Shown here in pieces: positions 4,076 through 54,238 of a stretch of 64,000 nucleotides of DNA. The stretch comes from an uncultured bacterium. Its GTDB lineage: Bacteria; Patescibacteriota; Minisyncoccia; Phycocordibacterales; UBA9973. Within the stretch, counting starts at the first letter, position 1; the number at the start of each line of letters is the position of its first letter. A model generated the notes under the pieces. That model had not been told where the DNA came from. It made no database searches and saw nothing but the letters and a program-made list of their open reading frames with translations. The stretch is from assembly GCA_903894955.1 (NCBI GenBank), contig CAITSA010000001.1, positions 3,769-67,768 of the forward strand. The letters are read 5' to 3'. A program made the translations under genes and the position numbers.

Positions 4076-4109
4076 TGGTTAATTATACCATTTAAGCTAT
4101 AATTCATAT

Positions 4110-5810: not shown

Positions 5811-5824
5811 AATAAAAAGATATA

Positions 5825-6637: not shown

Positions 6638-6658
6638 AATTTTATTATATATTAAAAA

Positions 6659-7579
6659 TTAACTAATTAATGTACCGGCTGAATCTAAATCCCAAAATGG
6701 CCTTACTTGCAGAGGAATTCTTTTTTCTTTGACTTCCTTTAAGGTTTTAGGATGCACTAAACCAAGAGCAACATCTTGCAAAAGACCACTAAGGTCATCA
6801 TAAGTTAAAAAGTCAATTCTTTTTACTTTTTCATTACTAAATAATTTTGGATTTTTTTCCATCACCCCAGGAACATCTTTCCAAAGAACCACTTTGTCTG
6901 CATGGAGAAGGTTACCGAGTAACCCAGCAGTATAATCACTCCCCCCTCTTCCTAATGTTGTCATAAATTTACTATCATTCTTTAGGTTATTTTTTGAGAA
7001 CCCAATAAAACCTTGAGTAATAATATTTTTGTGTAATTTAAAAACTTCTTCGCTAATTTTTAAATTTAAATTTAACGCAGTGGCGTTTTTATCAACATTC
7101 GCAGAACTAAAATTAGAATCAGTATATAAAAAATCAGTAGCATTAATAAGTTTATTTGGAATCCCAATAAAAGAAAAATAATTACTAATAATCAAACTCG
7201 CCAATATTTCTCCAAAAGGAACAATTTGATCATAGATAAATTTATCGTTCTCCAGATGCCCTATTCTAGAGAATGTATCTTTTATTTTTTTAAATTCATC
7301 TTCAATAATACTAAAAATAGTATGTGCTTTGGGAAAAAGTTGGGACACGATTTCCAGATGAAAAACTTTTAATTCATTTAACAACTTCTCATTTTCTTCT
7401 TTTTTCCCTTGTATATAATTCTTGACTATTGTTTCTAAATTATTAGTAGTCTTGCTAAAAGCAGAAAAAACATTTACAGAATAATCCTGTAAAGGGAAAT
7501 TTTCAAATATTTTTGACAAGTGTTTTATGGAAACAGCTCCTTCTATAATCCCGCCCCCAAATTTGTTCACTATAATCAT
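6659..7579 (-). CDS. lysC: aspartate kinase, catalytic domain only (no ACT domains)
   Basis: Start moved to ATG 7579 (MIIVNKFGGG), which avoids overlap with asd. KFGG and GRGGSDYTA motifs. About 306 aa, ending right after the kinase fold. Confidence 0.75.
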   Translation of the reverse strand: MIIVNKFGGGIIEGAVSIKHLSKIFENFPLQDYSVNVFSAFSKTTNNLETIVKNYIQGKKEENEKLLNELKVFHLEIVSQLFPKAHTIFSIIEDEFKKIKDTFSRIGHLENDKFIYDQIVPFGEILASLIISNYFSFIGIPNKLINATDFLYTDSNFSSANVDKNATALNLNLKISEEVFKLHKNIITQGFIGFSKNNLKNDSKFMTTLGRGGSDYTAGLLGNLLHADKVVLWKDVPGVMEKNPKLFSNEKVKRIDFLTYDDLSGLLQDVALGLVHPKTLKEVKEKRIPLQVRPFWDLDSAGTLIS

Positions 7580-7583
7580 AAAT

Positions 7584-8585
7584 TTAGATAATTTTACTAT
7601 GACAGAGGTATTCCGCAATTTGCACTGCATTAGTGGCTGCTCCTTTACGTAAATTATCAGCCACAATCCACATATTTAGAGAATTTTTATTTGATTCATC
7701 TCGGCGAATTCGACCCACAAATACTTCATCTTTACCATCGGTATATAACGGCATAGGATATTGTGAATTTCTAATATCATCAAGCACGATAACCCCTGGC
7801 ATTTTAGAAAGTAAAAATCTAACTTTTTTTAAATCGTAATCTTTTTCAAATTCAATATTGACTGACTCTGAGTGTCCTCCCATCACTGGAATACGAACAG
7901 CGGTCGTAGTTATATTTATACTTTCATCGCCTAATATTTTTCTCGTCTCATTAACCATTTTCATTTCTTCTTTGGTATAACCATTATCAAGAAAAACATC
8001 AATCTGTGGAATTAAGTTTAGGTCAATCGGATAGGCATAAGCCATCGCTCCCTTAATACCTTTACGCTCATTCATAAGTTGATCTACTGCTTTTTTACCG
8101 GTACCGGTCACAGATTGATAAGTTGAAACAACGATTCTTTTTATTTTAAATTCCTTATGTAAAGGATAAAGCGCCATAACCATTTGAATAGTTGAACAAT
8201 TTGGATTAGCAATAATTTTGTCTTCTTTTACTAAAACATTTCCATTTATTTCAGGCACGATAAGTTTCTTTAAAGAGTCCATTCTCCACGCTGAAGAATT
8301 ATCAATCACTGTTGCCCCTATTTGCGCAAAAAGTGGAGCCCACTCTAAAGAAACTGTTCTCCCAGCTGAAAATAAAACAATCTCTGGTTTTTTAGTTAAA
8401 GCTTCTTGAAGAGAAATAATTTTTAAAGGTACTCCATTGAAAATTATTTCTTCCCCAACTGATTTTTCACTTGCAACTGGCAATAATTCTAGAATAGGAA
8501 ATTTTCTTTCTTCAAGAACTTTGAGCATCATTCTCCCCACTAGACCAGTGGCCCCCACAACTGCAATTTTTTTCTTTTCTAACAT
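7584..8585 (-). CDS. asd: aspartate-semialdehyde dehydrogenase
   Basis: VGATGLVGR nucleotide-binding motif; active-site NPNCSTIQ; 333 aa. Confidence 0.9.
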   Translation of the reverse strand: MLEKKKIAVVGATGLVGRMMLKVLEERKFPILELLPVASEKSVGEEIIFNGVPLKIISLQEALTKKPEIVLFSAGRTVSLEWAPLFAQIGATVIDNSSAWRMDSLKKLIVPEINGNVLVKEDKIIANPNCSTIQMVMALYPLHKEFKIKRIVVSTYQSVTGTGKKAVDQLMNERKGIKGAMAYAYPIDLNLIPQIDVFLDNGYTKEEMKMVNETRKILGDESINITTTAVRIPVMGGHSESVNIEFEKDYDLKKVRFLLSKMPGVIVLDDIRNSQYPMPLYTDGKDEVFVGRIRRDESNKNSLNMWIVADNLRKGAATNAVQIAEYLCHSKII

Positions 8586-8611
8586 TTTAATTTTACCCGA
8601 ATGTAAATTTT

Positions 8612-9844
8612 TTATAATTTAAAATTATCTCGAATACTTTTAACTGCTTTTTCAATGTCTGTGGTATGACCAAAAGCGCTTAAACGCAAGTACCCTTCTC
8701 CAGACAGACCAAAACCAGATCCTGGTGTTCCAACAACATGGGTTTCATTTAAAAGTTTGTCGAAAAATTCCCAAGAGCTAAGACCTTTTGGATTTTTTAC
8801 CCAAATATAAGGAGCATTTTCTCCACCAAAAACTTTAAATCCAATTTTCAATAAATTTTTCTTTATTATTCTTGCATTGTTCATATAATAACCAACCATT
8901 TTTTTGCTTTCTCTTAGCCCAGCTTTTGACAAAACTGCTAGGGCGCCTGCCTGAGCAACATTGGATGCTCCATTAAACATCGTTCCTTGTCGTCTGTTCC
9001 ATAAATTATTAACTTCTCTCTTTTTTGTTTTTTCGATAACTAAATCCATCGGTACGACCGTCCAACCAAAACGAACACCGGTAAACCCTGCTGATTTTGA
9101 AAAACTATTTATCTCGATGGCACATTTTTTAGCTCCTTTTATCTCATAAATACTCTTCGGTAAAGATTTATTGGAGATATATTCGCAATAGGCTGCGTCG
9201 TAAATAATAACTGCTTTGTTTTTTATTGCATAATCAACAAAGGATTTTAACTGCTTTTTAGTAGCGACTGAACCAGTTGGATTATTTGGATTGCAAAGAT
9301 AAATTATATCCACCTTTTGTTTTGGCGGAAAAGGTACAAAATTATTTTTTTCGTTACATTCCATATACACTAAACCTTTATATTGACCATCAACAAACTC
9401 TCCTGTCCGGCCAGCAATAACAGTGGTGTCCACATATGCTGGGTATACAGGATCTGAAACAGCCACAATGTTATTTGAATCAAAAATTGATTGAATATTA
9501 GCTAAGTCCGTTTTAGCTCCATCATTAATAAAAATTTCCTGCATATTTAAACTAATATTCCTTGTCTTGTAAAAAGACATGAGCATTGTTAGGAGTTTTA
9601 TATTTGCTTCTTTTCCTTCAGCATCCTGATAACCTGTGTAGGTTTTAATATTGGCAAGTTTTTTTACTCCTTCAGATAATCCTTTGATAATAGTGGGAGA
9701 AAGAGGTTCTGTTGTATCACCTACTCCAAGTCGCATAACTTCTACTCTAGGATTCTTTTCTATAAAATCTCTAGTTCGTCTATCAATTTCACTAAATAAA
9801 TATCCACTTTTTAATTTATTAAAATTTTTATTTATAGTAGCCAT
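8612..9844 (-). CDS. dapL: LL-diaminopimelate aminotransferase-type class I aminotransferase
   Basis: N-terminal KLKSGYLFSEI; PLP-lysine context NSFSKSAGFTGVRFGW; 410 aa; lies between dapA and asd. Confidence 0.75.
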   Translation of the reverse strand: MATINKNFNKLKSGYLFSEIDRRTRDFIEKNPRVEVMRLGVGDTTEPLSPTIIKGLSEGVKKLANIKTYTGYQDAEGKEANIKLLTMLMSFYKTRNISLNMQEIFINDGAKTDLANIQSIFDSNNIVAVSDPVYPAYVDTTVIAGRTGEFVDGQYKGLVYMECNEKNNFVPFPPKQKVDIIYLCNPNNPTGSVATKKQLKSFVDYAIKNKAVIIYDAAYCEYISNKSLPKSIYEIKGAKKCAIEINSFSKSAGFTGVRFGWTVVPMDLVIEKTKKREVNNLWNRRQGTMFNGASNVAQAGALAVLSKAGLRESKKMVGYYMNNARIIKKNLLKIGFKVFGGENAPYIWVKNPKGLSSWEFFDKLLNETHVVGTPGSGFGLSGEGYLRLSAFGHTTDIEKAVKSIRDNFKL

Positions 9845-9859
9845 GAATCGTTATCAGAT

Positions 9860-10762
9860 TTAAATTAATTTTAAGTCTTTCAGAATTTTTTCTAGTAAAA
9901 TCCTATTTTTGTCTTCAATAAAAGTAAGGGGTAGTCTGAAACTTTCCTCAATCTTCCCCATCATAGCTAAAGCTGTTTTCACTGGAATTGGATTAGATTC
10001 AACAAAATTTATGTTCATTAAAGGCAAAAGGTCGTAGTGTAATTTTCTTGCCTCTTCTAAATTACCTTTAAGTGCTAAGTGAATCATTTTGGAAAATAAT
10101 TTAGGAGCTTCGTTGCAAACAACTGAAATACATCCTTGTCCACCTAGGGCAATAAGTGGCAAGGCCACAGCATCATCTCCAGAAAATACAATAAAATCTT
10201 TTGGACCATTTTTCCTTATTTCATTAATTATTTCCATCATCTGATTCAAGGAACCCGAAGCTTCTTTGACTGCTTTTACTTCCGGTACCTCTCTCGCAAT
10301 TCTTACAATAGTTTCTGGAGATACATTAGATCCAGTTCTCCCCGGAACATTATAAACAATAATGGGCATATCTACCATTTTGGCAATTTCTTTAAAGTGA
10401 AGAACTAAACCATTAGGAGTTGGTTTGTTGTAATAAGGAGTTACGTGAAGTAGGGCATCAGCTCCAGCCTTTTTTGCTAAGCGAGATAAATGAACTGCTT
10501 TTTTTGTATCATTACTACCGGCTCCGGCAATGACCGGAACTTTTTTAGCAACTGTTTTCACCACTGTTTTTATCACCAGACTATATTCTTCTTCATTTAA
10601 GGTAGTTGCTTCTCCAGTAGTCCCCACAACCACTATCGCATCTACCCCACCTTCTAATTGAAAAAGAACTAACTTTTCCAAAGCAGGCAAATCTAGGTCT
10701 CCATTTTTTTTAAAAGGAGTAACGATAGCTGGAATAGAACCAAAAAATTTTATGTTCTTCAT
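9860..10762 (-). CDS. dapA: 4-hydroxy-tetrahydrodipicolinate synthase
   Basis: VVGTTGE, YNVPGRTG, KEASG (Schiff-base Lys context); 300 aa. Confidence 0.9.
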   Translation of the reverse strand: MKNIKFFGSIPAIVTPFKKNGDLDLPALEKLVLFQLEGGVDAIVVVGTTGEATTLNEEEYSLVIKTVVKTVAKKVPVIAGAGSNDTKKAVHLSRLAKKAGADALLHVTPYYNKPTPNGLVLHFKEIAKMVDMPIIVYNVPGRTGSNVSPETIVRIAREVPEVKAVKEASGSLNQMMEIINEIRKNGPKDFIVFSGDDAVALPLIALGGQGCISVVCNEAPKLFSKMIHLALKGNLEEARKLHYDLLPLMNINFVESNPIPVKTALAMMGKIEESFRLPLTFIEDKNRILLEKILKDLKLI

Positions 10763-10778
10763 ATTTTATTTTGTTAAT

Positions 10779-11519
10779 TTATAAGATATTTTCAAAAGCA
10801 TAAATTCCTTTTTTACTTTTAATAAATTCTGCTGCAAACAATGCACCTTTAGCAAAACCAACTCTATTATATGCTTGGTGAGAAAGAGTAATGCCATCAG
10901 CATTACTATCAAAAATAACCTCGTGAAAACCAGGGTTTCTGCCCCCTCGAATTGAAGCAAGATGAAGTTCAGTAGGATCAATTTGTCTATTTAATTTTTC
11001 AGTTTGAATAGATTTTTTGGCTGGAAAATTTTCCAAAATCTTTCCTGCTATTTTCAAAGCAGTGCCGGAAGGACTGTCTAATTTACCTCCATGATGAATT
11101 TCAAAACCATAGACGTCATATTCTGGAAATTTAGCAAAAAGCTTAGAAGCAGAAGCTATCATTTTAAAAAATATATTGGCCCCCACTGAAAAATTAGCAC
11201 CATAAATTAATCCTATTTTATATTTCTTAACTATTTTTTTTACTTTCTCTATGTCAGAAGCCCATCCAGTCGTCCCGATAACTAAATTTTTACCAAGTTT
11301 GGCAATCTGTTCAATATTTTTTAAAACTATATCTTTGGAGGTGAAATCAATAGCAATGTCTGCTTTCTTGATCCCTTCTATATCTAACTTGTCATTAATA
11401 TTTTTAAAACTAATCGAAACAACCTCAAAGATTTCGGATTCATTACATAATGTATTAATTTCTTGGCCCATTTTCCCGTAACCAATCAAGGCAATTTTTA
11501 TTTTCTTTTTCATACTCAT
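10779..11519 (-). CDS. dapB: 4-hydroxy-tetrahydrodipicolinate reductase
   Basis: IGYGKMGQ and EIHHGGKLDSPSGTA motifs. Confidence 0.85.
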   Translation of the reverse strand: MSMKKKIKIALIGYGKMGQEINTLCNESEIFEVVSISFKNINDKLDIEGIKKADIAIDFTSKDIVLKNIEQIAKLGKNLVIGTTGWASDIEKVKKIVKKYKIGLIYGANFSVGANIFFKMIASASKLFAKFPEYDVYGFEIHHGGKLDSPSGTALKIAGKILENFPAKKSIQTEKLNRQIDPTELHLASIRGGRNPGFHEVIFDSNADGITLSHQAYNRVGFAKGALFAAEFIKSKKGIYAFENIL

Positions 11520-11680
11520 TAAGAGTACGAGCTTTATTGCCTAAAGTTAAGTTTTTTAACATTTACCTCAAAATTATGACTTTTTGTAAAATCTGTTAAA
11601 ATAGTAATACCTGTCCCGTACTAAATTTTTGATTACGGGATATAAGAATAAAGATTATTAATTAAAATTTTAGTACTGGG

Positions 11681-12337
11681 ATGATCAAAATACAACCAAT
11701 AGTGCGAGAAATAGTGCTTGGAGAATTAGAGGCTTGTTTTGCTTTAACTAATGGCTATATGAATATGAGCAGTTATGCACATCGCATTCGTCCAAAGGTG
11801 GAGGCCCTCACCAAAAAACAAGTAACTATTACCAGCCTAGTGGTTTCTTTGTCACGCTTACGAAAAGAATTTAAAAAAGAAAAACCTCTGATCCACGATG
11901 TCACTATAAAAAATATAACCACCAAACTCCCCATCTCAGAGATAATCTACGAAAACAACAGTAAATTTATTGAGGAGCTCGAATCATTTTATAAAGAAAT
12001 AGCAGTGACTCCGGAAGACTTTTTTACCATTACTATGGGGACCGCCGAGATTGATATTCTTTGTTCTTCTAATTTAGAAAATAAAGTATTGAAACATTTT
12101 AAAATAAAACCAAAAATTATGAATCATAATTTAGCAGCTATTGGAATTTCCTATGGCTCAGAAGTTTTCGGTATGCCAAATGTTTTCTTTTCGCTTCTTT
12201 CAGTTACCGCTCGAGCCCGCATCAACATAGAAGAGCTCGTCTCTACTCCAACTGAATTAATTTTTATTATTGCTGAAAAAGATTTCAGTCAAACAGTCGC
12301 TTTATTTTCTGAACTACATCGAGAAGTTAATAAATAA
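11681..12337 (+). CDS. hypothetical protein with C-terminal ACT-like domain
   Basis: The C-terminal ~70 aa (LAAIGISYGSEVFGMPNVFFSLLSVTARARINIEELVSTPTELIFIIAEKDF) look like an ACT fold by eye. Divergent from the dap operon. Confidence 0.4.
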   Translation: MIKIQPIVREIVLGELEACFALTNGYMNMSSYAHRIRPKVEALTKKQVTITSLVVSLSRLRKEFKKEKPLIHDVTIKNITTKLPISEIIYENNSKFIEELESFYKEIAVTPEDFFTITMGTAEIDILCSSNLENKVLKHFKIKPKIMNHNLAAIGISYGSEVFGMPNVFFSLLSVTARARINIEELVSTPTELIFIIAEKDFSQTVALFSELHREVNK

Positions 12338-12514
12338 AATTGGCAACAAAAAAAGCATTAATCTCTAAACAATCCTTTCGGAGCTGTGCTCCAAAAGTAA
12401 CAAAATATTATAGGATAGTTCCAGAAACTAATAAAAGTACCAAAACGTCCTATGCAAATTCATATAACCAAGGGCTGATTGCTTAGAGATTAATGCCTTT
12501 TTCAATTGTCAATT
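12338..12514. ncRNA. long-stem palindromic element (candidate structured RNA or elaborate terminator)
   Basis: 12348-12374 AAAAAAAGCATTAATCTCTAAACAATC is near-complementary to 12477-12502 GATTGCTTAGAGATTAATGCCTTTTT. About 100 nt between them carries two inner hairpins (GGAGCtgtGCTCC; ATAGGA...TCCTAT). Confidence 0.3.
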
Positions 12515-12561
12515 TTTCTTTCGCTTGATAAATTATACTACATACTTAATCAAGTAAATGC

Positions 12562-12597
12562 TATAATGTTGATAGCTATGTTGATACCCTGTTGATA
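12562..12597 (+). promoter_or_regulatory. TATAAT box followed by three helically phased TGTTGATA direct repeats upstream of ruvB
   Basis: TATAAT at 12562-12567. TGTTGATA at 12567-74, 12579-86 and 12590-97 (spacing 12 and 11 nt). The third reads TGTTGATAA, the complement of the DnaA-box-like TTATCAACA. Confidence 0.35.
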
Positions 12598-12661
12598 AAT
12601 GTACCACTTTTACAATATAGCATATAAGAAAATAAATGTCAACCCCTATCGTTTACGGACA

Positions 12662-13729
12662 ATGAAATTAAGTAAAAAAATCCTTATGAAAAAAGACGAA
12701 AAAAAAGAAATAGCTGATGATTCTTTTTTAGATCAAACCCTCCGCCCTACTCGATGGGATGAATATATTGGTCAAAAACACATAAAAGACAACGTTAAAA
12801 TCTTATTGCGAGCTGCCCAAGAACGCGGGCACATTCCAGAGCATCTTCTTTTTTATGGACCTCCTGGATTAGGGAAAACTACCTTAGCGCATTTAATTGC
12901 CAAAGAAACTGGCAAGCAAATGAAAATTACTTCTGGTCCAGCCATAGAAAAAGTTGGTGACTTGGCTTCAATTCTAACAAATTTGGCTTCTGGGGACATC
13001 CTTTTTATAGATGAAATTCACAGACTAAATAAAATGGTTGAGGAAATACTCTACCCTGCTATGGAGTCTGGAGTTTTAGATATTATTATCGGTAAAGGCC
13101 CTTCCGCGCGTACTATTCAGCTTGATCTCCCCCCTTTTACTTTAATTGCTGCCACGACTCGAGTGGCCATGGTTTCTTCTCCGCTTCGTTCTCGTTTTTC
13201 GGGAGGAGTTTTTCGTTTGGAATTTTACTCTAATGAGGAAATTGCAAAAATTGTTGAAAGGTCCAGTAAACTTTTAAAAATAAATTTAGCTCCGGAAGCC
13301 TTAAAAGAAATTGCGGAAAGGAGTAGGTTTACTCCTCGTACTGCAAATTACTTTTTGAAACGTTGTCGCGATTTCGCTCAAGTGTACCCCGAAGGAAAGC
13401 AAGCTTCCTACGGGGCAGGTGAAAAAGCTATTAGTAAAGAAATGGCGAGAAAAGCTCTTGCTATGCTGGCTATTGATGATATTGGTTTGAATTCTTCAGA
13501 TAGAAAATTTCTGGAAATATTAATTGAAAAATTCAAAGGTGGACCAGTGGGATTAAAAACTATGTCAGCCGCTATGTCAGAAGAAGAAGCGACTGTAGAA
13601 GAAGTGATAGAACCATACTTAATTCAATTAGGTTTACTAGAACGCACCGCCCGCGGAAGAGTTGCGACCAATAAAGCATATGAGCATTTAGGGTTTGACT
13701 CGAAAGAAAAACAAGAAAAACTTTTATAA
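12662..13729 (+). CDS. ruvB: Holliday junction branch-migration ATPase RuvB
   Basis: Start moved to ATG 12662 (MKLSKK). Walker A GPPGLGKTT, Walker B LFIDEIHR, RTANYFLKRCRDFA. Confidence 0.9.
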   Translation: MKLSKKILMKKDEKKEIADDSFLDQTLRPTRWDEYIGQKHIKDNVKILLRAAQERGHIPEHLLFYGPPGLGKTTLAHLIAKETGKQMKITSGPAIEKVGDLASILTNLASGDILFIDEIHRLNKMVEEILYPAMESGVLDIIIGKGPSARTIQLDLPPFTLIAATTRVAMVSSPLRSRFSGGVFRLEFYSNEEIAKIVERSSKLLKINLAPEALKEIAERSRFTPRTANYFLKRCRDFAQVYPEGKQASYGAGEKAISKEMARKALAMLAIDDIGLNSSDRKFLEILIEKFKGGPVGLKTMSAAMSEEEATVEEVIEPYLIQLGLLERTARGRVATNKAYEHLGFDSKEKQEKLL

Positions 13730-13808
13730 AAAGACAAATAGAAAGCCACTATAAAACTAAAAGTCTTATAGTGGCTGGTAGATCTTTAGACCATGGTTAG
13801 GTCAAGTT

Positions 13809-13833
13809 TAGACACAAAAGCGTGTCTATTTTT
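13809..13833 (+). terminator. rho-independent terminator-like hairpin
   Basis: TAGACAC-aaaagc-GTGTCTA followed by TTTTT. Confidence 0.6.
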
Positions 13834-14177
13834 GAAACTCTGATTTTTTGATAATAAAAACCTCCTATGTTTTTTAAAGAAGACATAGGGAACTCCTTCA
13901 CTGTGCAGTTTGTTACATTACTTTACAAAAAACACGCATAGGCAATATCTCCTTTTTCTTAAAAAGAAACGTTGTTATAGTGCGTTTTTCTTCTCTCTGT
14001 AGGGATAGATTAAATAACCCTAAAGAGTAACAATACACACCGGGTGACGGATCTATTATCATCATTTTCTTGGCACTCCCAAGAAAATGATAAAAACTAA
14101 AAGGAACTTATTTGTTTGTATACAATATCTAATCATTTAAAAATGCAAGAACTTGTTCATAATGTTAAAATTATCAA

Positions 14178-14663
14178 ATGACACGAATTTTAGGGATAGA
14201 TCCAGGATACGAACGACTTGGGGTCGCTATCTTGGAAAAGAATAAAGGTGATAAAAAAGAAAGAGTGCTTTTTTCGGAATGTTTTAAAACTTCAGCTAAA
14301 TTAAATTTTTCTGAACGATTATTTTTAATTGGCGAAGAAGTAAAAAAAGTAATAAATAAATACAAACCAGAAGTTCTTTCAATTGAAACTCTTTTCCTAA
14401 ACACTAATCAAAAAACAGTGATGAAAGTCGCAGAAGCACGCGGAGTGGTTGTTTATGAAGCTGTCAGCGCTGGATTGAAAATATTTGAAGCTTCTCCTCC
14501 CCAAATAAAAATAGCCACCACGGGTTACGGCCGAGCCAACAAAGAACAAATAACAAAAATGGTAAAAATATTAGTGGACATCGAAAAATCTAAAACCTCT
14601 GACGATGAATTGGACGCTATCGCTATCGCACTAACAGCCCTTGCTTGCCTAAAAATGAAGTAA
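14178..14663 (+). CDS. ruvC: crossover junction endodeoxyribonuclease RuvC
   Basis: ILGIDPGYERLG N-terminus, ...ELDAIAIAL C-terminal acidic motif; 161 aa. Confidence 0.85.
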   Translation: MTRILGIDPGYERLGVAILEKNKGDKKERVLFSECFKTSAKLNFSERLFLIGEEVKKVINKYKPEVLSIETLFLNTNQKTVMKVAEARGVVVYEAVSAGLKIFEASPPQIKIATTGYGRANKEQITKMVKILVDIEKSKTSDDELDAIAIALTALACLKMK

Positions 14664-14758
14664 TACTTTTAAAAACCGCACATAATTTTCTGCTGAAAAT
14701 TTGCTATGCTCGGCTCGCCAGCCTGCGCAATGCTTTTTAAAAGTATTACTTCATTTTT
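14651..14758 (+). repeat. arm-core-arm element, copy A (conserved hairpin CTCGGCTCGCCAGCCT at 14709-14724)
   Basis: 25-bp perfect inverted arms (14651-14675 / 14734-14758). The left arm contains the last codons and stop of ruvC. The 58-nt core shares its architecture with 25589, 49870 and 59225. Confidence 0.7.
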
Positions 14759-14850
14759 AAGTACAAGTTATCCACATTTGCTATTGCCAAGCTTTTTATA
14801 TTTTGATACAAAGTATGCATTAGTAGGAATTTAATAAAAATAAATTTTTT

Positions 14851-14976
14851 ATGTACGATGAAGATGAGGAAATAGATGGGAATTTCAAAATGGGCGTGGA
14901 CGAAGATGAACCGCTCGACATGCCTGATGATCCTGATTTTGGATTAGATGAAGAAGACCCAGACAGAGATGGTTAA
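14851..14976 (+). CDS. possible 41-aa highly acidic small protein
   Basis: My translation: MYDEDEEIDGNFKMGVDEDEPLDMPDDPDFGLDEEDPDRDG*. Followed directly by a strong terminator. No clear SD; below the ORF-track cut-off. Confidence 0.35.
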   Translation: MYDEDEEIDGNFKMGVDEDEPLDMPDDPDFGLDEEDPDRDG

Positions 14977-14980
14977 AAAA

Positions 14981-15010
14981 TAACCCCGTCGCTCGCGAGC
15001 GACGGGGTTA
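14981..15010. terminator. bidirectional terminator, 30-nt perfect palindrome
   Basis: TAACCCCGTCGCTCG|CGAGCGACGGGGTTA flanked by an A-run and a T-run. Shared by the small ORF (+) and tyrS (-). Confidence 0.8.
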
Positions 15011-16210
15011 TTTTATTACAATTTTCACAAATCTTTTTTTACCAATTTTAAGAGTTAAGTTTTCTGAAATTTTTAAGTTTACGTCTGTTATATTTTTATC
15101 ATTTAGTAAATCATGAACTGCGTTTTCTAAAACAAGTCTTCGCCACTCTCCTTTAGAGGATAAAATCTTATTTTTTACTAAAATTTCGCTCAACATTTCT
15201 CCGGTTTTAACTTTTATTTCCTTTATTTTTTCTGGAATTTCCTTTTTTTGAAAAGTATTCACAAAATTCTCTTCTGCTTTTTGGGCATCTTTTACAGAGT
15301 GATAAAAGGAGATAATTTTTTTAGCTAAAATCTTTTTAAATTCCATTGGATTTTCTCCATTTTTTAAGGAATTTTCTATCTTCGCTATTTCACTTAAGTT
15401 TAAGTCTGTTGTCAGTAAAAAATATTTTGTAATAAGTTCATCTTTTAAAGACATTATTTTCCCGAACATTTCATCTGGGGTATCAATAACAGAAATTATA
15501 TTTCCCCAAGAAGAAGACATCTTACGTCCATCTGTCCCCTCGAGCATAGAAAGAACCATAATATCTTGTTCTTTTTGCCCGTATCTTTTTTGAACAGTTC
15601 TCCCTGCTTTTAAATTAAAAAGTTGGTCAAACCCCCCAATTTCAACATCTGAATTAACAGCCACGCTATCATACCCCTGTAAAGCAGGATACATAAATTC
15701 AACCATAAAAACATCTTTACCCGCATCCAATCTTTCTTTAAAATTTCTTCTTTTTGTCATTTGTTGCACAGTAAAACATTCCAACAACTGACCTATCTCC
15801 GGAATACTCATCCCTTTGAGCCATTCAGAGTTATATCTAACTTCTACCTCTTTCATATCCAAAATAAGATTAATTTGTTCCAAATATTTTTTTAAATTAT
15901 TACTTATTTGTTCATCGGTTAGCATTGGTCTTTTTTCTAATTTATCTGATGGATCTCCAATTTTTGCAGTAAAATCACCAATAATTAAGACAATATGATG
16001 CCCTAAATCTTGAAAGGCTTTAAGTTTAAGGAGGGTTACCGCTCGGCCGAGATGAATAAAAGGACTTGTTGGGTCAATGCCAAGTTTAATTCTTAGTTGT
16101 TTTCCAGAACTTAATCTTTCTTTTAAGTCTTCTTTTATAAAAATATCTTCCACCCCTCGACTTAAAACTTCTTTTATTTTCTTTTCATCTGTTATGACTT
16201 TCACCCTCAA
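15008..16210 (-). CDS. tyrS: tyrosyl-tRNA synthetase
   Basis: GIDPTSPFIHLGR (HIGH-type), IGDPSDK, KMSSS (KMSKS-type), C-terminal S4-like tail; 400 aa. Confidence 0.75.
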   Translation of the reverse strand: MRVKVITDEKKIKEVLSRGVEDIFIKEDLKERLSSGKQLRIKLGIDPTSPFIHLGRAVTLLKLKAFQDLGHHIVLIIGDFTAKIGDPSDKLEKRPMLTDEQISNNLKKYLEQINLILDMKEVEVRYNSEWLKGMSIPEIGQLLECFTVQQMTKRRNFKERLDAGKDVFMVEFMYPALQGYDSVAVNSDVEIGGFDQLFNLKAGRTVQKRYGQKEQDIMVLSMLEGTDGRKMSSSWGNIISVIDTPDEMFGKIMSLKDELITKYFLLTTDLNLSEIAKIENSLKNGENPMEFKKILAKKIISFYHSVKDAQKAEENFVNTFQKKEIPEKIKEIKVKTGEMLSEILVKNKILSSKGEWRRLVLENAVHDLLNDKNITDVNLKISENLTLKIGKKRFVKIVIK

Positions 16211-16242
16211 ATAATACCATATTTTATGATATAATTCGACTA

Positions 16243-18792
16243 ATGAAAGGGGTATTTAAAAAAATAAAAAATTTATACAAAAACAAAAGAGCATTTAGAA
16301 ATTTATTGCTGTTGTTAACGGGTATTTTTATTTTATTAATGGGAATAATTATTATTTTATTGTCTTCTTTGGAGATTCCTGATTTTCATTCTTTTGAAAA
16401 TAGAAAGGTAGTAAATTCTACTCAGATTTATGACCGAACGGGAAAAATTTTACTTTATGACATACATCAAGATGTCAAAAGAACAGATATCCCTTTTGAA
16501 CAAATGAGTTTGAATATAAAAAATGCCACCGTCGCTATTGAAGATTCTGAATTTTACAATCATGGTGGAATACGAATAACTTCTATCATTCGCGCCATTC
16601 TTTCTAATCTATTTCATGTTGGGATAGGAGGAGGAGGTTCAACCATCACTCAGCAATTAGTGAAAAATACTCTCCTCACTAACAGTAGTGGTTTTGCTAA
16701 ATATATTAGAAAAGTAAAAGAATGGGTCTTGGCTATAAAAATAGACAACTCTATGCCCAAAGATAAAATCTTAGAGGCTTATTTGAATGAAATTCCCTAC
16801 GGTGGAAATGTTTATGGGATAGAAGCAGCTAGTAAAACTTATTTCAATAAAGATGCACAAGATTTGACCTTAGCCGAAGCGGCCTATTTGGCTTCAATCC
16901 CACAGTCTCCTAGTACCCTCTCTCCTTATGGAAAGAATAGAAGCAAATTAGACGCTAGAAAAAATCTAGTGCTTTCTAGAATGTTAGATTTGAAGTTCAT
17001 TACTCAAGAAGATTACGATAAAGCAAAAAATGAAGAGGTAGTTTTTAACCCCCCAGCAACCCAAGGCATCAGAGCTCCACATTTTGTTTTTTTTATTAAA
17101 GATTATCTTGAACAAAAGTATGGCAGTGATGTAGTAGACGGAAGTGGGTTGAAAGTTACCACCACGATTGATGCCGACCTTCAAGCTAAAGCGGAACAAA
17201 TTGTCAAAGATGGCGCCCTGCAAAACGAAAAAGATTGGAACGGAAAGAATGCTGGGTTAGTGGCCATAAATCCGAAAACGGGACAAATTTTAACCATGGT
17301 CGGCTCAAGAGATTATTTTGATAAAACAATCGATGGTAATTTCAACATAACTACAGCCAATCGACAGCCAGGATCCTCTTTTAAGCCCTTTATTTACGCT
17401 ACGGCCTTCAATAAGGGCCTTACTCCTGATACAGTACTCTTCGACCTACCTACAGAATTTCAAACAACCTGTAATGCTTATGGAAAGGCTCTAGTAGGGC
17501 ACAGCCAAAAAGATTGCTATATGCCGGATGATTATGATGGAAAATTTCGGGGACCAATGTCGTTACGAGATGCTCTAGCGCAATCAATAAACATTGTAGC
17601 CGTAAAACTTTTCTATTTAGCAGGACTTCCTGATTCATTAAAGACAGCGCAAGATATGGGAATCAGTACTTTGGGAAATAGTGGTCAGTATGGACTTACT
17701 TTAGTTATCGGAGGTGGTGAAGTTTCACTTTTGGACATGACGTCAGCTTATGGAGTTTTTGCTAATGATGGCACAAAAAATCCATATACTGGAATTTTGG
17801 AAGTGCAAGATTTAACTGGAAAAATCTTAGAACAATATCAACCTAATCCACAATATGTTCTACCAAAAAATACTACTCTAACTATTTCCGATATTTTATC
17901 AGACAACCAAGCTCGAATTCCAACCTTTGGAGCAAATTCAGCTCTACAAATACCCAACGAAGAAGTGGCAGTAAAAACCGGAACAACAAATGATAACAAG
18001 GACGCTTGGACTATTGGATATACGCCATCTATTGTGGTAGGTGTATGGGCTGGTAATAACGATAACATTCCAATGAAAAAAGGTGGAGCAGCCGTAGCCG
18101 GACCTATTTGGAATAAATTTATAACCGAAGCCTTAAAAACTTTACCAAATGAAAGCTTTGAAAAACCAGACCTAACAACCGACCCAACTAAAATAAAACC
18201 AGTGCTCCGTGGATTTTGGCAAGGAAATGAAAACTTCTTTATAGATAAAATTTCTGGAAAGTTATCCACGGCCGACACTCCGCCAGAAACCTTACAAGAA
18301 AAAGTAATAACAAACGTACATTCAATTTTATATTGGGTAGATCGAAGTAATATTTTGGGTCCGGCACCACTAGGAGGAGGAGATAATAGTGCTCAGTTTA
18401 ATCACTGGGAGATACCGGTCCAAAACTGGTGGGCAAAAAATAAAGATAAATATCCAACGACAACCTGGAGTGAAAAACCAACCACCCTGGATAATGTACA
18501 TACTAGCGCAAATCAGCCAAAGGTTTCAATTATTGAGCCAAATAATGAAACGATTTATTCACCAGATCAAAAAATAAACTTGAAAATTTCAAATTCCAGT
18601 GTTTTCCCTTTGCAGAAAATAGATATTTTTATAAATAATACTTATTTAGAAACACTGAAACCGCCTTTTAATTTTTCTTTCACCCCATCCGATTTAGAAA
18701 ATATACAAAGTGAAAATGAATTAAAATTAATTTCTTATGATACAGTTTATAACCGCAGTGAGACTAATTTAATCTTTAAAATAACGCAGTAG
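16243..18792 (+). CDS. class A penicillin-binding protein (glycosyltransferase + transpeptidase)
   Basis: EDSEFYNHGG and GGSTITQQL (GT51). SSFKP, SIN and KTGTT (transpeptidase). N-terminal TM helix. Confidence 0.85.
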   Translation: MKGVFKKIKNLYKNKRAFRNLLLLLTGIFILLMGIIIILLSSLEIPDFHSFENRKVVNSTQIYDRTGKILLYDIHQDVKRTDIPFEQMSLNIKNATVAIEDSEFYNHGGIRITSIIRAILSNLFHVGIGGGGSTITQQLVKNTLLTNSSGFAKYIRKVKEWVLAIKIDNSMPKDKILEAYLNEIPYGGNVYGIEAASKTYFNKDAQDLTLAEAAYLASIPQSPSTLSPYGKNRSKLDARKNLVLSRMLDLKFITQEDYDKAKNEEVVFNPPATQGIRAPHFVFFIKDYLEQKYGSDVVDGSGLKVTTTIDADLQAKAEQIVKDGALQNEKDWNGKNAGLVAINPKTGQILTMVGSRDYFDKTIDGNFNITTANRQPGSSFKPFIYATAFNKGLTPDTVLFDLPTEFQTTCNAYGKALVGHSQKDCYMPDDYDGKFRGPMSLRDALAQSINIVAVKLFYLAGLPDSLKTAQDMGISTLGNSGQYGLTLVIGGGEVSLLDMTSAYGVFANDGTKNPYTGILEVQDLTGKILEQYQPNPQYVLPKNTTLTISDILSDNQARIPTFGANSALQIPNEEVAVKTGTTNDNKDAWTIGYTPSIVVGVWAGNNDNIPMKKGGAAVAGPIWNKFITEALKTLPNESFEKPDLTTDPTKIKPVLRGFWQGNENFFIDKISGKLSTADTPPETLQEKVITNVHSILYWVDRSNILGPAPLGGGDNSAQFNHWEIPVQNWWAKNKDKYPTTTWSEKPTTLDNVHTSANQPKVSIIEPNNETIYSPDQKINLKISNSSVFPLQKIDIFINNTYLETLKPPFNFSFTPSDLENIQSENELKLISYDTVYNRSETNLIFKITQ

Positions 18793-19075
18793 GAGTTTTT
18801 TTACCAAAAGATTCTTCAAGTTTGGAAAATATTTGATTTTGTTTTAGTAAAATTTCGTTTTTATAAATAGGTTTAATATTTAAATAAATTATATTATTTT
18901 TTATTTCTATTTCTTGAGATTTTATCTCTATATTAATAACCTCAGAAATAGTTTTCCGGATAATTTCTTTTTTCCCTTCTTCCCCTAGAAGGAGATTATT
19001 AAATCTGCTTAATAAATCTTTTATCTCTATCATGAATTCCTTTATAACCTTATGAACTTTATAACTTTTTACCAA
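18776..19075 (-). CDS. small DUF721-like protein downstream of dnaN (start uncertain: TTG 19075 or ATG 19033)
   Basis: Position after dnaN; C-terminal ...NNIIYLNIKPIYKNEILLKQNQIFSKLEE pattern. Weak, by eye. Confidence 0.3.
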   Translation of the reverse strand: MVKSYKVHKVIKEFMIEIKDLLSRFNNLLLGEEGKKEIIRKTISEVINIEIKSQEIEIKNNIIYLNIKPIYKNEILLKQNQIFSKLEESFGKKTPTALF

Positions 19076-19076
19076 T

Positions 19077-20174: not shown

Positions 20175-20423
20175 ATATTTGTTTATATTTTATATATTTA
20201 ATTTATTAATAATACTAATGGTGTTAATAAGTGGATAAGTATTCTTATTGTTATTTTATATGGTTTTATTTTATATTCTATGTTTTTTATAAATCTAACA
20301 ACTTTTTCTATTTTTTATAAATTAATTTTTAAAACTTAAAACACTTTTCTTATTATTTTTTATGCACTATTTTTTATATTTTTTATTCTACTTTTCATTG
20401 TCTTATAAGTCACTTCTTAACAG
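20175..20423. other. candidate oriC part (very AT-rich dnaA-dnaN spacer, likely DNA-unwinding region)
   Basis: 249 nt almost devoid of G/C. One near-consensus DnaA box AGTGGATAA (20230-20238, complement TTATCCACT). Confidence 0.5.
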
Positions 20424-21764: not shown

Positions 21765-21820
21765 AGTTTCATATTATACTATTTATAAGATAGAAGACAT
21801 CTTTGAAAGCTTATTAACTC

Positions 21821-21840
21821 TGTTGATAAGCTGTGGATAA
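21821..21840 (-). promoter_or_regulatory. two adjacent DnaA boxes upstream of dnaA
   Basis: TGTTGATAA (21821-29) and TGTGGATAA (21832-40, perfect complement of TTATCCACA). Confidence 0.6.
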
Positions 21841-21920
21841 TTTTAATTGATTTTTGGGGTTTAGTATTAGAACTTAGCGCCTAACTTGCTAGAAGCTAAT
21901 TTTTATTATAGACTAGTCTT

Positions 21921-22055: not shown

Positions 22056-22061
22056 ATAAAC

Positions 22062-31838: not shown

Positions 31839-32285
31839 TTACTTATTATTCTCTTTTTGTTTACTTAAATCTAATATATCCAAACTCCAAGCTAAATCTC
31901 GTAACTTACTCCCGCTTAACTGGTCGCCTTCTTTTATCATTTGAACTTTATTTGTATTATTATTTTTTTCCCCGCCCGCATCGCCTTGCGAAGCATGGCG
32001 GGCAGGTATACGTTTTTTCCAGATGTAAAGTTTATTTTGGGTAAAATATTTAAAACTTGATTCTAGCATATTCACAAAAGGTTTATTATTTGGTTTATAA
32101 AAAGTAAGGGTTAGAGAAAATCCAGCCATGATTAAAATCGGGATTGCTCCCATCACGAGACCTAATAATTTATACAATACAAAACATAGGCCTGCTCCTC
32201 CTGCCAAGTAAATAAATTCCCTAAAAGTAAAAGGACCAAATATTTTATCTTCAATATCTAAAAATTGTGGAACTTTGAATTGCAT
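31839..32285 (-). CDS. PrgI/VirB3-like small membrane protein
   Basis: MQFKVPQFLDIEDKIFGPFTFREFIYLAGGAG followed by two TM helices; directly upstream of the VirB4 ORFs. Confidence 0.6.
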   Translation of the reverse strand: MQFKVPQFLDIEDKIFGPFTFREFIYLAGGAGLCFVLYKLLGLVMGAIPILIMAGFSLTLTFYKPNNKPFVNMLESSFKYFTQNKLYIWKKRIPARHASQGDAGGEKNNNTNKVQMIKEGDQLSGSKLRDLAWSLDILDLSKQKENNK

Positions 32286-33792: not shown

Positions 33793-36198
33793 TTATTTTT
33801 TTTCTTCTTGTATACTTGCACGAATTTTATTTGCAGCTTCATTGGCTCCACGATGTAAGGCATACTCGCCTCCACTAAATATAAAGTTCAAAGCTCTGCT
33901 TCCACTACCCTCTAATTTTTCAGCATACTTTGTTTTTCTCTCTCTATTTACTCCAACGACAGCATTTTCTGCTACCTTTAGAGCAACTTCTGCTGTATGA
34001 GTATCACTCCCTGCATCTCTAATATCTTTTTCTCTGGTAAGCACAAGTTGTCTTGTATTAGTTTTTTCTCCCTGCAATCTAACTTGTTCATCAATAGCAT
34101 TTTTTACTCTAGCGCTTTTCCCTGTTGGGTCTGCGGCCTGTGCCGCCTTCAGTTCTCTTTCAGCATCAGCAAGATCCCTTTCTGCTTGGGTGGCAGCTCT
34201 TTCTAATTGCTTTAGGCTTTGTCCTGCTCCTTCTATAGGATTACCATCCTTGTCGAGAGTCCCCGCAGTCCCTTCGGTTAGTGCTAATATTTGTGGCGCT
34301 GCCGCTATTTTTGCCGCCTGAAGTTTGCCTTCTTTCTCTCTAACAGTTTGCATTTCTTTCTCGTCCTCTCCGACTTCAATTTCTTTTGCCCTTTCCATTC
34401 TCTTCTTTACATCTTGTTCTCTCCTTTCTTTAAATCCTCCCTTTTGTGCTTCACCGACTTTCATACCAGTTGCTGATGCCAAAGTTTTACCCCCAATGCT
34501 TGCCCCGCGAACATCAAAGCTTCCACTTTGCATCTTTTTAAACCCAGACATGGCAGCTTCTCCACCAAAACCACTTGCCTCCCAATTCTTTGCCCATCGA
34601 GAGTTAGCCATAGCAGAGCCTGCCCTTCCAGCAGTTGCGCGACCAACTTTTGCAGCTCCAATTGCTGTTGCCCCCAAAGCAAGTCCGCCTGCTATCTTTG
34701 CGCCTTTAAAAATTGCTTCCCCTAATTCCCCGGATGCTTTTTTAGCAAATTTAGTTGCTTGAAGAAGAAGAATCAAAACCAAAAGTGCTGGTATAACAAG
34801 GAGCACTATAGCTTCTAGTGTTGATTGATCCTTAAAATTGCGAACTGCAAGACTAGCAAATAGATCTGCTTTTACAAGTAAAAATATTAAATATAGAAAA
34901 AACATAAAAATTGGCGCCATAAATGCCACTTTAAGTAAACGTTTAGACCAAGCATCCCATCCTAAATATTCAACACTACTAAAAATTGGAAGGGTTGAAG
35001 ACATAAAAGCAAAAGGAGAAAAGATAATTAAAATCCAAAGTTCAATTAATCTACTTAAAAAACAAAAACCTGCTATAAAGAATGCATATGCAGCAAAAGC
35101 CATTATTAACCCACTTATAAGAATTATTCCAATCATAAAAGGAGCAGGAATAGCATTTGAAGGAATGAATGAATAAGCGAGGTAGGCTGCAGTTGCCACC
35201 CCTGCACCAACAACCCCTCCGAAAACAGCTCCAGTGCCCGCAGTTGCTGCTGTACCAACCATAGTTGGACGTGAGGAAGTTTGTTTTTTAGCTTTGTCAA
35301 AAAATTCCTGGGTTAACATTTCTCCTGGCTTAAAGGCCTTGGCTAATCCACCAGCAAAATCTTTTTCTGTATTTCCAGTTTTTGTTGGGTCTGTAATTGG
35401 TTTATATTCTATATTTGTGGCTGTTGTTCCAGTCCCTATCTGTTGATTAACATTAATTTTATTATAAAAAATTAAAGCTAAAATATTTGATGTATCAATA
35501 ATTACTTCAGTGAAAAACATAGAAAAGTTTATAAGCAAAGCGACAACTATCACCTTGACTATCATTTTTTTAACATCAGCTCCCCCCAGCCCTAAAATAA
35601 CTTTAATAGCTATATAAAGGAGAATAAGGATAAAGAAAATATTAGAAAGATCACGCACAACTGCCCAAGCATTAGGAATGAAACTAGATTTGGTATACAA
35701 GGCACTGCTTAACGTAATAGACAATAATACATCTAAAAATTCTGCAGCTACACTCAACAGTAAACTGGGAACTGTATAGAATACAATATAAGTTATTTTA
35801 ACCAAGCAACCTTCCAAGCTACTACTCCCAATTACACCGCAAGACTGTAGATTGTTTTCAAGTGCACTGTTGCCAGTTGATCCTATGTTATTAGGATCTC
35901 CTGCCTTACCACTACACGCTTTTTGAGCAGCGGCTGTTTGTGCAGCAACATCCTTATTCCCTTTAGCATCCACCATTCCACTATTTATAACAGTTTGATC
36001 TGTTATACACTGTGTGTATTCACTTGCACTTGCTTTTCTCACTGGACTAAAAAGTCCAACGAAGACGATAAGCAGGATTATTCCCAATACTAAAATTTTA
36101 CTCTGCTTGCCCCATAGTGAATGTTGCTCTACTATTGGGGTAGTTTCTGATTTTGAATTTCTGGTAGTAGAATTTTGGTTTATTAAATCTTTTATCAT
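33793..36198 (-). CDS. polytopic membrane protein, VirB6/TrbL-like, with long Ala/Lys/Glu-rich C-terminal tail
   Basis: At least 8 predicted TM helices after a Cys-containing extracytoplasmic segment. Sits in the T4SS-like locus. 801 aa. Confidence 0.5.
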   Translation of the reverse strand: MIKDLINQNSTTRNSKSETTPIVEQHSLWGKQSKILVLGIILLIVFVGLFSPVRKASASEYTQCITDQTVINSGMVDAKGNKDVAAQTAAAQKACSGKAGDPNNIGSTGNSALENNLQSCGVIGSSSLEGCLVKITYIVFYTVPSLLLSVAAEFLDVLLSITLSSALYTKSSFIPNAWAVVRDLSNIFFILILLYIAIKVILGLGGADVKKMIVKVIVVALLINFSMFFTEVIIDTSNILALIFYNKINVNQQIGTGTTATNIEYKPITDPTKTGNTEKDFAGGLAKAFKPGEMLTQEFFDKAKKQTSSRPTMVGTAATAGTGAVFGGVVGAGVATAAYLAYSFIPSNAIPAPFMIGIILISGLIMAFAAYAFFIAGFCFLSRLIELWILIIFSPFAFMSSTLPIFSSVEYLGWDAWSKRLLKVAFMAPIFMFFLYLIFLLVKADLFASLAVRNFKDQSTLEAIVLLVIPALLVLILLLQATKFAKKASGELGEAIFKGAKIAGGLALGATAIGAAKVGRATAGRAGSAMANSRWAKNWEASGFGGEAAMSGFKKMQSGSFDVRGASIGGKTLASATGMKVGEAQKGGFKERREQDVKKRMERAKEIEVGEDEKEMQTVREKEGKLQAAKIAAAPQILALTEGTAGTLDKDGNPIEGAGQSLKQLERAATQAERDLADAERELKAAQAADPTGKSARVKNAIDEQVRLQGEKTNTRQLVLTREKDIRDAGSDTHTAEVALKVAENAVVGVNRERKTKYAEKLEGSGSRALNFIFSGGEYALHRGANEAANKIRASIQEEKK

Positions 36199-48585: not shown

Positions 48586-48711
48586 GCGATATCTTGGAGG
48601 GGTACCCAGCAGTAGAGAAATCTCACTTCTGGGCATAGTCCTGAAGAGAGGTACAGAGCAAATTGACTGAAGGCTAGAGAAGACAGTAACCATCGTGAGA
48701 ACCTTTATCGC
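48586..48711 (+). promoter_or_regulatory. candidate c-di-AMP (ydaO/yuaA-class) riboswitch
   Basis: P1 GCGATA/TATCGC. GGGGTACCCAGC (cf. GGGGGACCCA); internal pseudo-repeat GAGGTACAGAGC; GACAGTAACCATCGTGAG (cf. GUCAGCUAACCUCGUAAG). Lies upstream of a LysM/M23 cell-wall hydrolase, a typical ydaO context. Confidence 0.55.
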
Positions 48712-54170: not shown

Positions 54171-54238
54171 TATTTAGTAGATTTCTTGCTGATAACACCC
54201 CGATAGCAGAGCAAGCTCGCTACGGGGCAGGAGTTTCA

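Follow-up and report, generated by a model that had tools for sequence, protein, structure and literature searches.

This work concerns a short, GC-rich hairpin carried in frame by the ruvB gene of an uncultured patescibacterium, within a 64,000-nucleotide (nt) stretch of contig CAITSA010000001.1 (assembly GCA_903894955.1), referred to here as the window. The host gene (12599..13729, + strand) is an intact open reading frame (ORF) of 376 amino acids (aa) whose product matches RuvB chains of the PDB across residues 45-367 (phmmer, E 3e-104), with supporting Pfam domains read from the identical protein P0001. The genome has a G+C content of 34%, and its nearest RuvB proteins and loci all come under the names Candidatus Nomurabacteria, Paceibacterota or Patescibacteria. 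Window positions 13386-13421, inside the ruvB ORF, read ACCCCGAAGGAAAGCAAGCTTCCTACGGGGCAGGTG, and a covariance model built from 16 copies of the repeat, designated family 1, matches 13386..13420 of the + strand (58.4 bits, E 4e-12).

When the ruvB product is aligned with RuvB of Thermus thermophilus (HMMER; 8efv and 1hqc), a 10-residue gap falls exactly at YPEGKQASYG, and comparison with insert-free RuvB of Nomurabacteria sets the insert at 33 nt, or 11 in-frame codons encoding PEGKQASYGAG (13388-13420). An original prediction, made from the DNA sequence by eye, had counted about 10 extra residues, and either alignment bears this out. The insert is not private to the lineage, with about half of the 120 closest RuvB proteins carrying it or a variant of it. 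An AlphaFold2 model of RuvB from 30 sequences was poor (predicted local distance difference test 52) and was used solely for secondary structure near the insert; this low-confidence model places the insert in a coil between helices 246-262 and 280-291, tentatively suggesting a loop of the AAA+ lid domain.

The window holds two strong and two to three eroded copies of family 1, as judged by the covariance model. The second strong copy, an intergenic sibling of the ruvB insert, lies at 54197-54233 (ACCCCGATAGCAGAGCAAGCTCGCTACGGGGCAGGAG; model match 54197..54232, + strand, 50.7 bits) in a 68-nt spacer between convergent genes, namely a CCA-adding enzyme gene (stop codon 54168-54170) and a Cys-rich zinc-ribbon gene (stop codon 54239-54241, - strand), both identified by Pfam. 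The proposal that the ruvB insert is a member of a repeat family and has an intergenic sibling thus holds at 58 and 51 bits for the two sites, and the family has proved far larger than the pair. The sibling was also considered as an intrinsic terminator and rejected, there being no terminator-like site within 54000-54400 and no T run, with CAGG and mixed sequence in its place whichever strand is read.

Hairpin architecture and covariation

Sixteen aligned copies, from ruvB and other loci, share a single plan. An invariant 5-bp foot, CCCCG/CGGGG, is followed by an A/A mismatch, a 3-bp helix starting with an A-T pair, a bulged A, a further helix of 3-6 bp, and a variable loop, while the 3' end carries an unpaired CAGG (CCTG on the opposite strand), giving units of 33-43 nt. 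In the ruvB copy (+ strand), the foot (P1) pairs CCCCG at 13387-13391 with CGGGG at 13411-13415, the A/A mismatch lies at 13392/13410, P2a pairs AGG (13393-95) with CCT (13407-09), the bulged A is at 13396, P2b pairs AAG (13397-99) with CTT (13404-06), and the CAAG loop (13400-03) and CAGG tag (13416-19) complete the unit. Folded as DNA, this copy reaches -9.2 kcal/mol, and both strands of the ruvB and 54197 copies form predicted hairpins of -9.1 to -9.7 kcal/mol (z -3.2 to -3.9).

The hairpin sequences were found at both positions first proposed for them, and the pattern CCCCG-N7-GCAAGCT-N4-ACGGGGCAGG, allowing up to 3 mismatches, occurs at these 2 sites alone in the 64 kb, with 0 matches in 100 shuffles. 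The covariation that had been claimed for the inner stem is likewise real and general. Between the two window copies, AGG/CCT is replaced by AGC/GCT and AAG/CTT by GAG/CTC; across the 16-copy alignment, both sides have changed in 8 of 14 pairs and 93% of cells pair. Among 115 distinct copies recovered by the covariance model, 94% of cells pair and both-side changes occur in 281 cells, a result equalled by none of 500 shuffles and far above the score of slid registers. The bulged A (112 of the 120 listed copies) and the first P2 base (118 of 120) are genuinely conserved, since both lie outside the search pattern, while the unpaired CAGG/CCTG end, present in 111-117 of the 120, partly reflects ascertainment. 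One earlier suggestion has to be dropped, i.e., that an AAGCTT-centred apex unites the ruvB hairpin with two further GC-rich repeats, copies C and D. The apex is a variable loop across family 1 (CAAG, TTC, AAA, and others), the sibling lacks AAGCTT, and copies C and D come from a different family.

Pairs in family 1 are nearly all Watson-Crick, with G-T at about 1% and no commoner than A-C. Furthermore, the apical triloop is strand-asymmetric, with C(TTC)G seen 26 times and C(GAA)G 5 times, such that the CCTG strand would bear a d(C-GAA-G) loop. The d(C-GAA-G) loop is an unusually stable DNA mini-hairpin. On the strength of the near-absent G-T pairs and the triloop asymmetry, a DNA hairpin seems somewhat more likely than an RNA helix under selection, short of proof, and the element may well act as single-stranded DNA. 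Across the whole window, only tRNAs reached the Rfam gathering score, and nothing meaningful was found around the 54197 copy at E values up to 10.

Dispersal and coding context

Family 1 is dispersed well beyond the window. In 80 related genomes (1.36 Mb around ruvB), the covariance model returned 31 matches, about a dozen of them outside ruvB, and a metagenome search with the pattern ACCCCGAA-N14-36-ACGGGGCAGG returned at least 120 loci, many of the hits coming from the Hainich groundwater time series. The listed metagenome loci gave 120 covariance-model hits, and about 92 of the 120 matches listed are genuine, lying on low-GC contigs, with a proper hairpin and with flanks that all differ. 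The exact 33-mer of the window ruvB copy recurs at three unrelated loci (L185, within an enolase gene, L211, and L230). Several contigs carry 2-5 copies, including inverted doublets 10 nt apart (L247, L269), an inverted pair (L231), and tandem pairs (L202, L247); the window itself holds no inverted dimers resembling REPINs or bacterial interspersed mosaic elements (BIMEs). Viral contigs gave 76 pattern matches, nearly all of which were rejected as chance (GC-rich, with no inner stem), leaving at most one or two (L105, L119) that look genuine.

About 60% of the roughly 92 genuine listed copies are intergenic, in either orientation relative to neighbouring genes. By a strict criterion, 31 of the 92 lie well inside long ORFs; simple gene calling raises this to 40, of which 36 are in sense and 4 in antisense orientation. 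The reading frame used in ruvB, giving [D/N/H]PEGKxxSYGAG, is found in 18 of 27 sense copies under the strict criterion. Tolerance at the protein level best explains this bias, since five of the six frames through the element are open. Pfam-confirmed hosts include MutM/Fpg in three genomes, each time within the linker that joins the N-terminal domain to the H2TH domain, as well as enolase, topoisomerase I (TopA), DnaX, HolA (two copies), ParB, a class-I release factor, and transketolase. Within genes, the surviving copies would be those with a length that is a multiple of 3, placed where the protein tolerates them, in a surface loop or a linker between domains, and read in frame to give the small, hydrophilic, Gly-rich peptide PEGKxxSYGAG. 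Because only tolerated in-frame copies would survive within genes, the RuvB copy is best seen as a translated passenger, presumably an 11-residue loop of the lid domain and probably neutral for RuvB.

The converse arrangement, in which selection on RuvB function favoured the extra loop and the hairpin simply follows from the codons used, would accord with the peptide staying in frame where the hairpin erodes (L042, L067). It fails to account for identical DNA at intergenic sites and in unrelated proteins, for the conservation of synonymous sites, or for the absence of the loop from the closest relative and most orthologues. That proposal, together with a chance resemblance of the two window sites, which the shuffles described above exclude, is highly improbable.

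Family clustering of the genes near 88 metagenome copies found no enriched nuclease, reverse transcriptase, or transposase. The commonest neighbour family was the Cys-rich zinc-ribbon protein (6 loci), approximately as its genomic abundance predicts. At L181 (1780-1880), L257 (1-110), and L276 (1440-1530), a T-arm-like hairpin follows closely on tRNA genes, and in each case a family 1 copy separates the 5' strand of its stem from its TTCGAAT loop. A tRNA or tmRNA identity for these three contexts was rejected, as neither ARAGORN nor Rfam calls anything there, with nothing meaningful in Rfam at E values up to 1.

Turnover at the ruvB site and duplicated flanks

The insertion site in ruvB lies after RDFAQV-x and is empty in most genomes. 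The closest genome, L001, which is syntenic with window 4078-22692 (~18 kb; 87-92% nt identity), lacks the ruvB insert, with VY running directly into EK..., and also lacks a long-loop, 74-nt relative of family 1 (ATCCCAGTAC...GTACGGGACAGGT). In the window, the 74-nt element (11609..11682, - strand; 23.7 bits, E 1e-3) lies directly upstream of the ATG of gene 11681..12337, and blastn pairs window 11606-11681 with L001 7482-7485, a clean presence/absence difference. A similar copy occurs at another locus in L019. At L011 8940-9020, corresponding to window position ~11680, a different inverted-repeat insert of ~75 nt (ATGACC...GGTCAT) occupies the same spot before the start codon.

Where the ruvB site is filled, its contents differ. 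Type A is 33 nt long; types B and C are 39 nt and have a different apex; a 24-nt form has the same sequence as a copy at L079:748; and L277 carries the ACC-A-GAG subfamily, which L044 and L063 have in identical form at other loci. A second family, family 2 (CCTGCCCGC...GCRGGCGGGG), fills the site in L278 and L279, the former reading PARNASHSDAGG, while other GC hairpins are found in L030, L048, L056, and L058. Finally, AT-eroded, in-frame remnants persist in L042 (PEGKNTSHEAG) and L067 (PEITNEAN). Since different families and subfamilies fill one site across lineages, the ruvB position is either targeted repeatedly or a spot where one copy replaces another, and not one frozen accident. The original prediction was to fall if RuvB orthologues outside the lineage encoded the same residues by non-hairpin DNA; only the L042 and L067 remnants came to light and, being decayed and within the same clade, they support insertion followed by erosion.

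In seven genomes with type-A copies, third positions of codons for the same amino acid are 90% identical in the element versus 47% in the ruvB flanks, and overall identity is 93% versus 71%, demonstrating that the element is either constrained at the nucleotide level or younger than its surroundings. In addition, the window ruvB departs from L001 over ~45 nt downstream of the insert, resembling with-insert alleles there, and the copy may therefore have arrived by allelic recombination rather than by insertion.

For ruvB alone, these data can also be read as a single ancient insertion in the ancestor of a Nomurabacteria subclade that was then inherited, recombined between lineages, and slowly eroded, with no ongoing mobility at the site. 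The with-insert state is common among close RuvB homologues, the ~45-nt patch sits on an otherwise L001-like backbone, and eroded in-frame remnants exist, as such a history would predict. It is harder to reconcile with at least five different inserts at the site, including the 24-nt form and the subfamily identical to copies elsewhere, given that these inserts are not interconvertible by point changes. Likewise, family 2 has a different hairpin foot and dispersed copies of its own, and the element, far more similar between genomes than its flanks, looks younger than they are or more constrained. We regard this history as possible, though on the whole unlikely. A neighbour-joining tree of the 120 RuvB proteins, with distances of ~0.04, holds too little divergence to resolve gains and losses.

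Further copies in the window are in various states of decay. One, at 36105..36141 (- strand; ACCCCAATAGTAGAGCAACATTCACTATGGGGCAAGC; 24.9 bits, E 6e-4), lies within the first 32 codons of an 801-aa membrane-protein ORF (33793..36198), and another, at 48604..48636 (+ strand; 12.4 bits, E 0.6), is a weak and possibly eroded candidate. Family 2 is represented by a hairpin at 31969..32007 (CCTGCCCGC...GCGGGCGGGG on the - strand), read in frame as PARHASQGDAGG in a 148-aa ORF for a small membrane protein (31839..32285), and has matches at 10 further dispersed loci. Another GC-rich repeat family of the window, comprising the copies C and D mentioned above and distinct from families 1 and 2, occurs at 14707-14742, 25656-25722, 49901-49967, and 59294-59329, with the core CTCGGCTCGYCAGCCT, or CTCGGCTCG(T/C)CAGCCT, often preceded by a hairpin around AAGCTT. 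A canonical bidirectional terminator between ruvC and tyrS (14977-15014; A run, CCCCGTCGCTCGCGAGCGACGGGG, T run) shares the CCCCG/CGGGG foot with family 1.

Flanking direct repeats of at least 7 nt, variable in length, accompany 42 of 114 family 1 copies, compared with 18.7% of random positions in the same loci (p 4e-6). The sibling at 54197 shows this most clearly. Read in the direction of the Cys-rich gene, the order is CYQQEIY-stop, 7 nt, the element, and a second intact CYQQEIY-stop. The first of these is the true end of the gene (54239-54262), and the displaced second copy of its last 7 codons and stop (54174..54197, - strand) abuts the sibling. The same layout of a duplicated gene end is seen independently in L200 near 8380-8470, in a ~40%-identical paralogue from another genome and with another element subfamily, while an orthologue in L183 (75% identical) has neither element nor duplication. 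Nine of the 10 differences between the duplicated CYQQEIY-stop copies are in the third position of a codon, which means that each was still coding as they diverged. The sibling insertion appears to have carried in a gene end of its own or to have been moved between paralogues by recombination, which explains the arrangement only in part. A diversity-generating retroelement was considered for the duplicated end and dropped, as the differences between the copies are not adenine-specific.

Copy-and-paste by template switching or reverse transcription, whether through hairpin-stalled replication or target-primed synthesis, would carry flanks along and leave target duplications of variable length. 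Such a process is congruent with the enrichment of flanking repeats (11 nt at L211, 13 nt at L213, and 24 nt at the sibling), with the second gene ends of the sibling and L200, differing almost solely at third positions, with a TGTGGATA extension common to three unrelated copies, and with an A-rich 3' flank. Conversely, 72 of the 114 copies lack a repeat of at least 7 nt, the ruvB copy is free of any duplication, the genes linked to copies include neither a reverse transcriptase nor another candidate, and the A-richness may merely reflect an AT-rich genome. This route is accordingly rated as doubtful.

The Cys-rich gene next to the sibling is one of three paralogues in the window that encode proteins of ~560 aa (2351-4075, 22579-24303, and 54239-55918, all on the - strand), with zinc ribbons at both ends and nothing further in Pfam beyond a weak treble-clef match. 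The first two share 90% identity over their 3' 300 nt and ~70% over the remainder. In L200 the family occurs in tandem triplets, and sequence resembling the family of copies C and D lies 3' of Cys-rich genes in L200 and L225.

Possible mobility or function, and resemblance to known elements

Taken as a whole, membership, structure and covariation, dispersal, presence/absence differences, frame bias, and recurrent occupation of the ruvB site, each directly observed, point with moderate likelihood to the ruvB insert being one copy of a dispersed palindromic repeat family in Patescibacteria (Paceibacteria/Nomurabacteria), resembling the repetitive extragenic palindromes (REPs) of bacteria and the Rickettsia palindromic elements (RPEs), and mobile or actively maintained. 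Copies would be gained, lost, and replaced at the DNA level, and the element would be selfish or actively maintained rather than useful. The weakest step of this account is the means of movement, for which we suggest a hairpin-specific HUH/Y1 enzyme of the REP-associated tyrosine transposase (RAYT) type, or recombination between alleles or paralogues.

Candidate enzymes of this type do exist in the loci examined. RAYT-like Y1_Tnp genes (PF01797), which are common in these Patescibacteria, are present in 12 of them (L202 4826-5518, L274, L003 1245-1664, L071, L047, L051, L025, L270, L243, L019, L062, and L066), scoring best against the NCBI model for REP-associated tyrosine transposases (68-73 bits, below the cut-off of 80) and far better there than against IS200 TnpA. 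Every one has its own pair of inverted hairpins on its two sides, such as AACAGGCCTTGCCTGTT and TTGTGAGGTCTTGCCTCACAA, and these differ from the family 1 hairpin, which flanks none of the 12. Neither are RAYT-like genes enriched near family 1 copies, and the window contains none. With other hairpins flanking these genes and no enrichment near copies, the RAYT link is offered as a hypothesis only.

A number of observations weigh against a mobile or selfish repeat. Neither a transposition event nor a mobilising enzyme has been seen, the RAYT-like genes being partnered with other hairpins and positioned without regard to family 1; copy number looks modest, at ~9 non-ruvB copies per Mb in ruvB-centred loci; the flanking repeats of variable length argue against a pure Y1/HUH mechanism, as Y1/HUH transposition would not produce them; and the downstream patch in the window ruvB may mean that this copy came by allelic exchange and not by insertion. 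Two further points, i.e., the strong conservation of synonymous sites in the ruvB element and the maintenance of a family 1 copy in the yidC-dnaA spacer of seven genomes, with compensatory changes, could signify function rather than selfishness.

The latter points lead to a different view, in which each copy is a functional cis-element, a protein-binding or structural signal in DNA or RNA (e.g., for replication, priming, or mRNA stability) that is selected locus by locus, with coding copies tolerated as useful. The yidC-dnaA copy is orthologous among its seven genomes, and three non-orthologous copies each adjoin a perfect DnaA box, TGTGGATAA, always with the same offset, where 0.08 would be expected. 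The invariance of the mismatch, bulge, and tag fits equally well, as does the location of the sibling, 7 nt past a stop codon between convergent genes, a classic REP position. To the contrary, the close relative L001 manages without copies, eroded copies persist in frame (L042, L067, and window 36105), intergenic copies point both ways relative to their neighbours, the elements lack an Rfam match and the T run of a terminator, and G-U pairs are all but missing, contrary to what is usual in an RNA helix under selection. A DnaA box is present in the window's own dnaA-rpmH-rnpA-yidC region, where the covariance model finds no family 1 copy. The yidC-dnaA copy and the DnaA-box fusions keep the idea of a useful DNA signal alive, though we consider it unlikely.

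The origin-type region of the window spans 20424-25086 and contains dnaA (- strand), the DnaA box TGTGGATAA (21832-21840), rpmH, rnpA, and yidC, interrupted by one Cys-rich gene. In relatives, yidC and dnaA are adjacent, with the hairpin copy between them. GC skew changes from mostly negative to positive at ~51000-53000, near a cluster of four tRNA genes, a shift that may just reflect gene orientation.

It is also conceivable, if rather improbable, that the copies form a new class of site-specific mini-elements in Patescibacteria that home repeatedly to the same codon positions of essential genes (ruvB, mutM, and the 3' end of the Cys-rich gene family), at times with replacement of flanking coding sequence, and that are moved or maintained by a hairpin-specific enzyme or double as a DnaA or origin signal in DNA.

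For the dispersed, REP- or RPE-like repeat that we favour, REPs offer the closest comparison. Like the GTAG- and CGTC-tagged REPs with their REPIN doublets and RAYTs (PMC3733652, PMC3116915, PMC3479197), family 1 is an imperfect, GC-rich palindrome of the 20-40 nt class with an unpaired terminal tetranucleotide, its stems differ between classes while pairing is kept, and it occurs as single copies, inverted doublets, and tandem clusters. Many REPs are found no more than 20 nt from a stop codon where two genes converge. A smaller number are intragenic, especially in genes for replication and repair, and some of these recur at one site in related species. The same genomes carry RAYT genes, which can have unrelated inverted repeats on either side. 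Indeed, both the presence of REPs inside ORFs, many of them DNA synthesis and repair genes, and the flanking of RAYT genes by inverted repeats unrelated to REPs have been described (PMC3733652). Of the hallmarks of a REP, the small hairpin-forming palindrome (20-40 bp) has its counterpart in units of 33-43 nt and the opposite-orientation dimer in L247, L269, and L231. What makes family 1 look REP-like is a tag beside an imperfect hairpin that contains an extrahelical base, together with the doublets and the placement next to stop codons.

Several features nonetheless set family 1 apart. Its tag is CAGG/CCTG, not GTAG or CGTC (GTAG occurs only incidentally, in the type-A stem); its share of intragenic copies is much higher, at ~35-40% of sampled copies; it looks sparse, with at most tens of copies in each Mb; the loci examined yielded no cognate RAYT with family 1 hairpins at its sides; and its host phylum is Patescibacteria. 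Patescibacteria are not known to be among the phyla surveyed for REPs, and nothing specific was found in the literature on REPs, RAYTs, or palindromic elements in Patescibacteria or the candidate phyla radiation (CPR).

A second parallel is provided by the RPEs, reviewed as “selfish DNA in protein-coding genes” (PMC10969869). These, too, are palindromic repeats read in frame within unrelated housekeeping genes of a small, AT-rich genome, giving a conserved translated peptide that is tolerated in surface regions. They are longer, however, at ~100-150 bp (30-50 residues) versus 33-43 nt (11-14 residues) for family 1, share no sequence similarity with it, and belong to a different lineage. The GC clusters of yeast mitochondria and the hairpin elements of sponge mitochondria (PMC2800124) are likewise short, GC-rich hairpins that invade AT-rich genomes, coding regions included, with presence/absence differences between close relatives; these are organellar and have no comparable plan of foot, bulge, and tag, making this an analogy only. 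Finally, the subterminal hairpins of the IS200/IS605 family, which are recognised by TnpA (Y1) as single-stranded DNA (PMC6006769), also combine an imperfect hairpin, an extrahelical base, a nearby short conserved sequence, and reading of one strand, whereas family 1 has no adjacent transposase gene, no pair of left and right ends, and flanking duplications of a sort that IS200/IS605 transposition does not make.

Family 1 is thus a new family of a known, REP-like kind of element, RPE-like where it lies inside genes, with a new tag, a new host phylum, and an unusually high intragenic share. It extends the phenomenon of REPs and RPEs to a phylum whose genomes are among the smallest and most streamlined and yet harbour a selfish-looking repeat in essential genes. 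Short, GC-rich “loops” such as PEGKQASYGAG in CPR proteins are better read as repeat-derived than as functional, and the repeats themselves are usable as markers of strain and lineage. That different family members have repeatedly occupied one codon position in ruvB provides a natural system for the study of target choice, as does the strong conservation of synonymous sites, a feature with a bearing on whether such elements are maintained.

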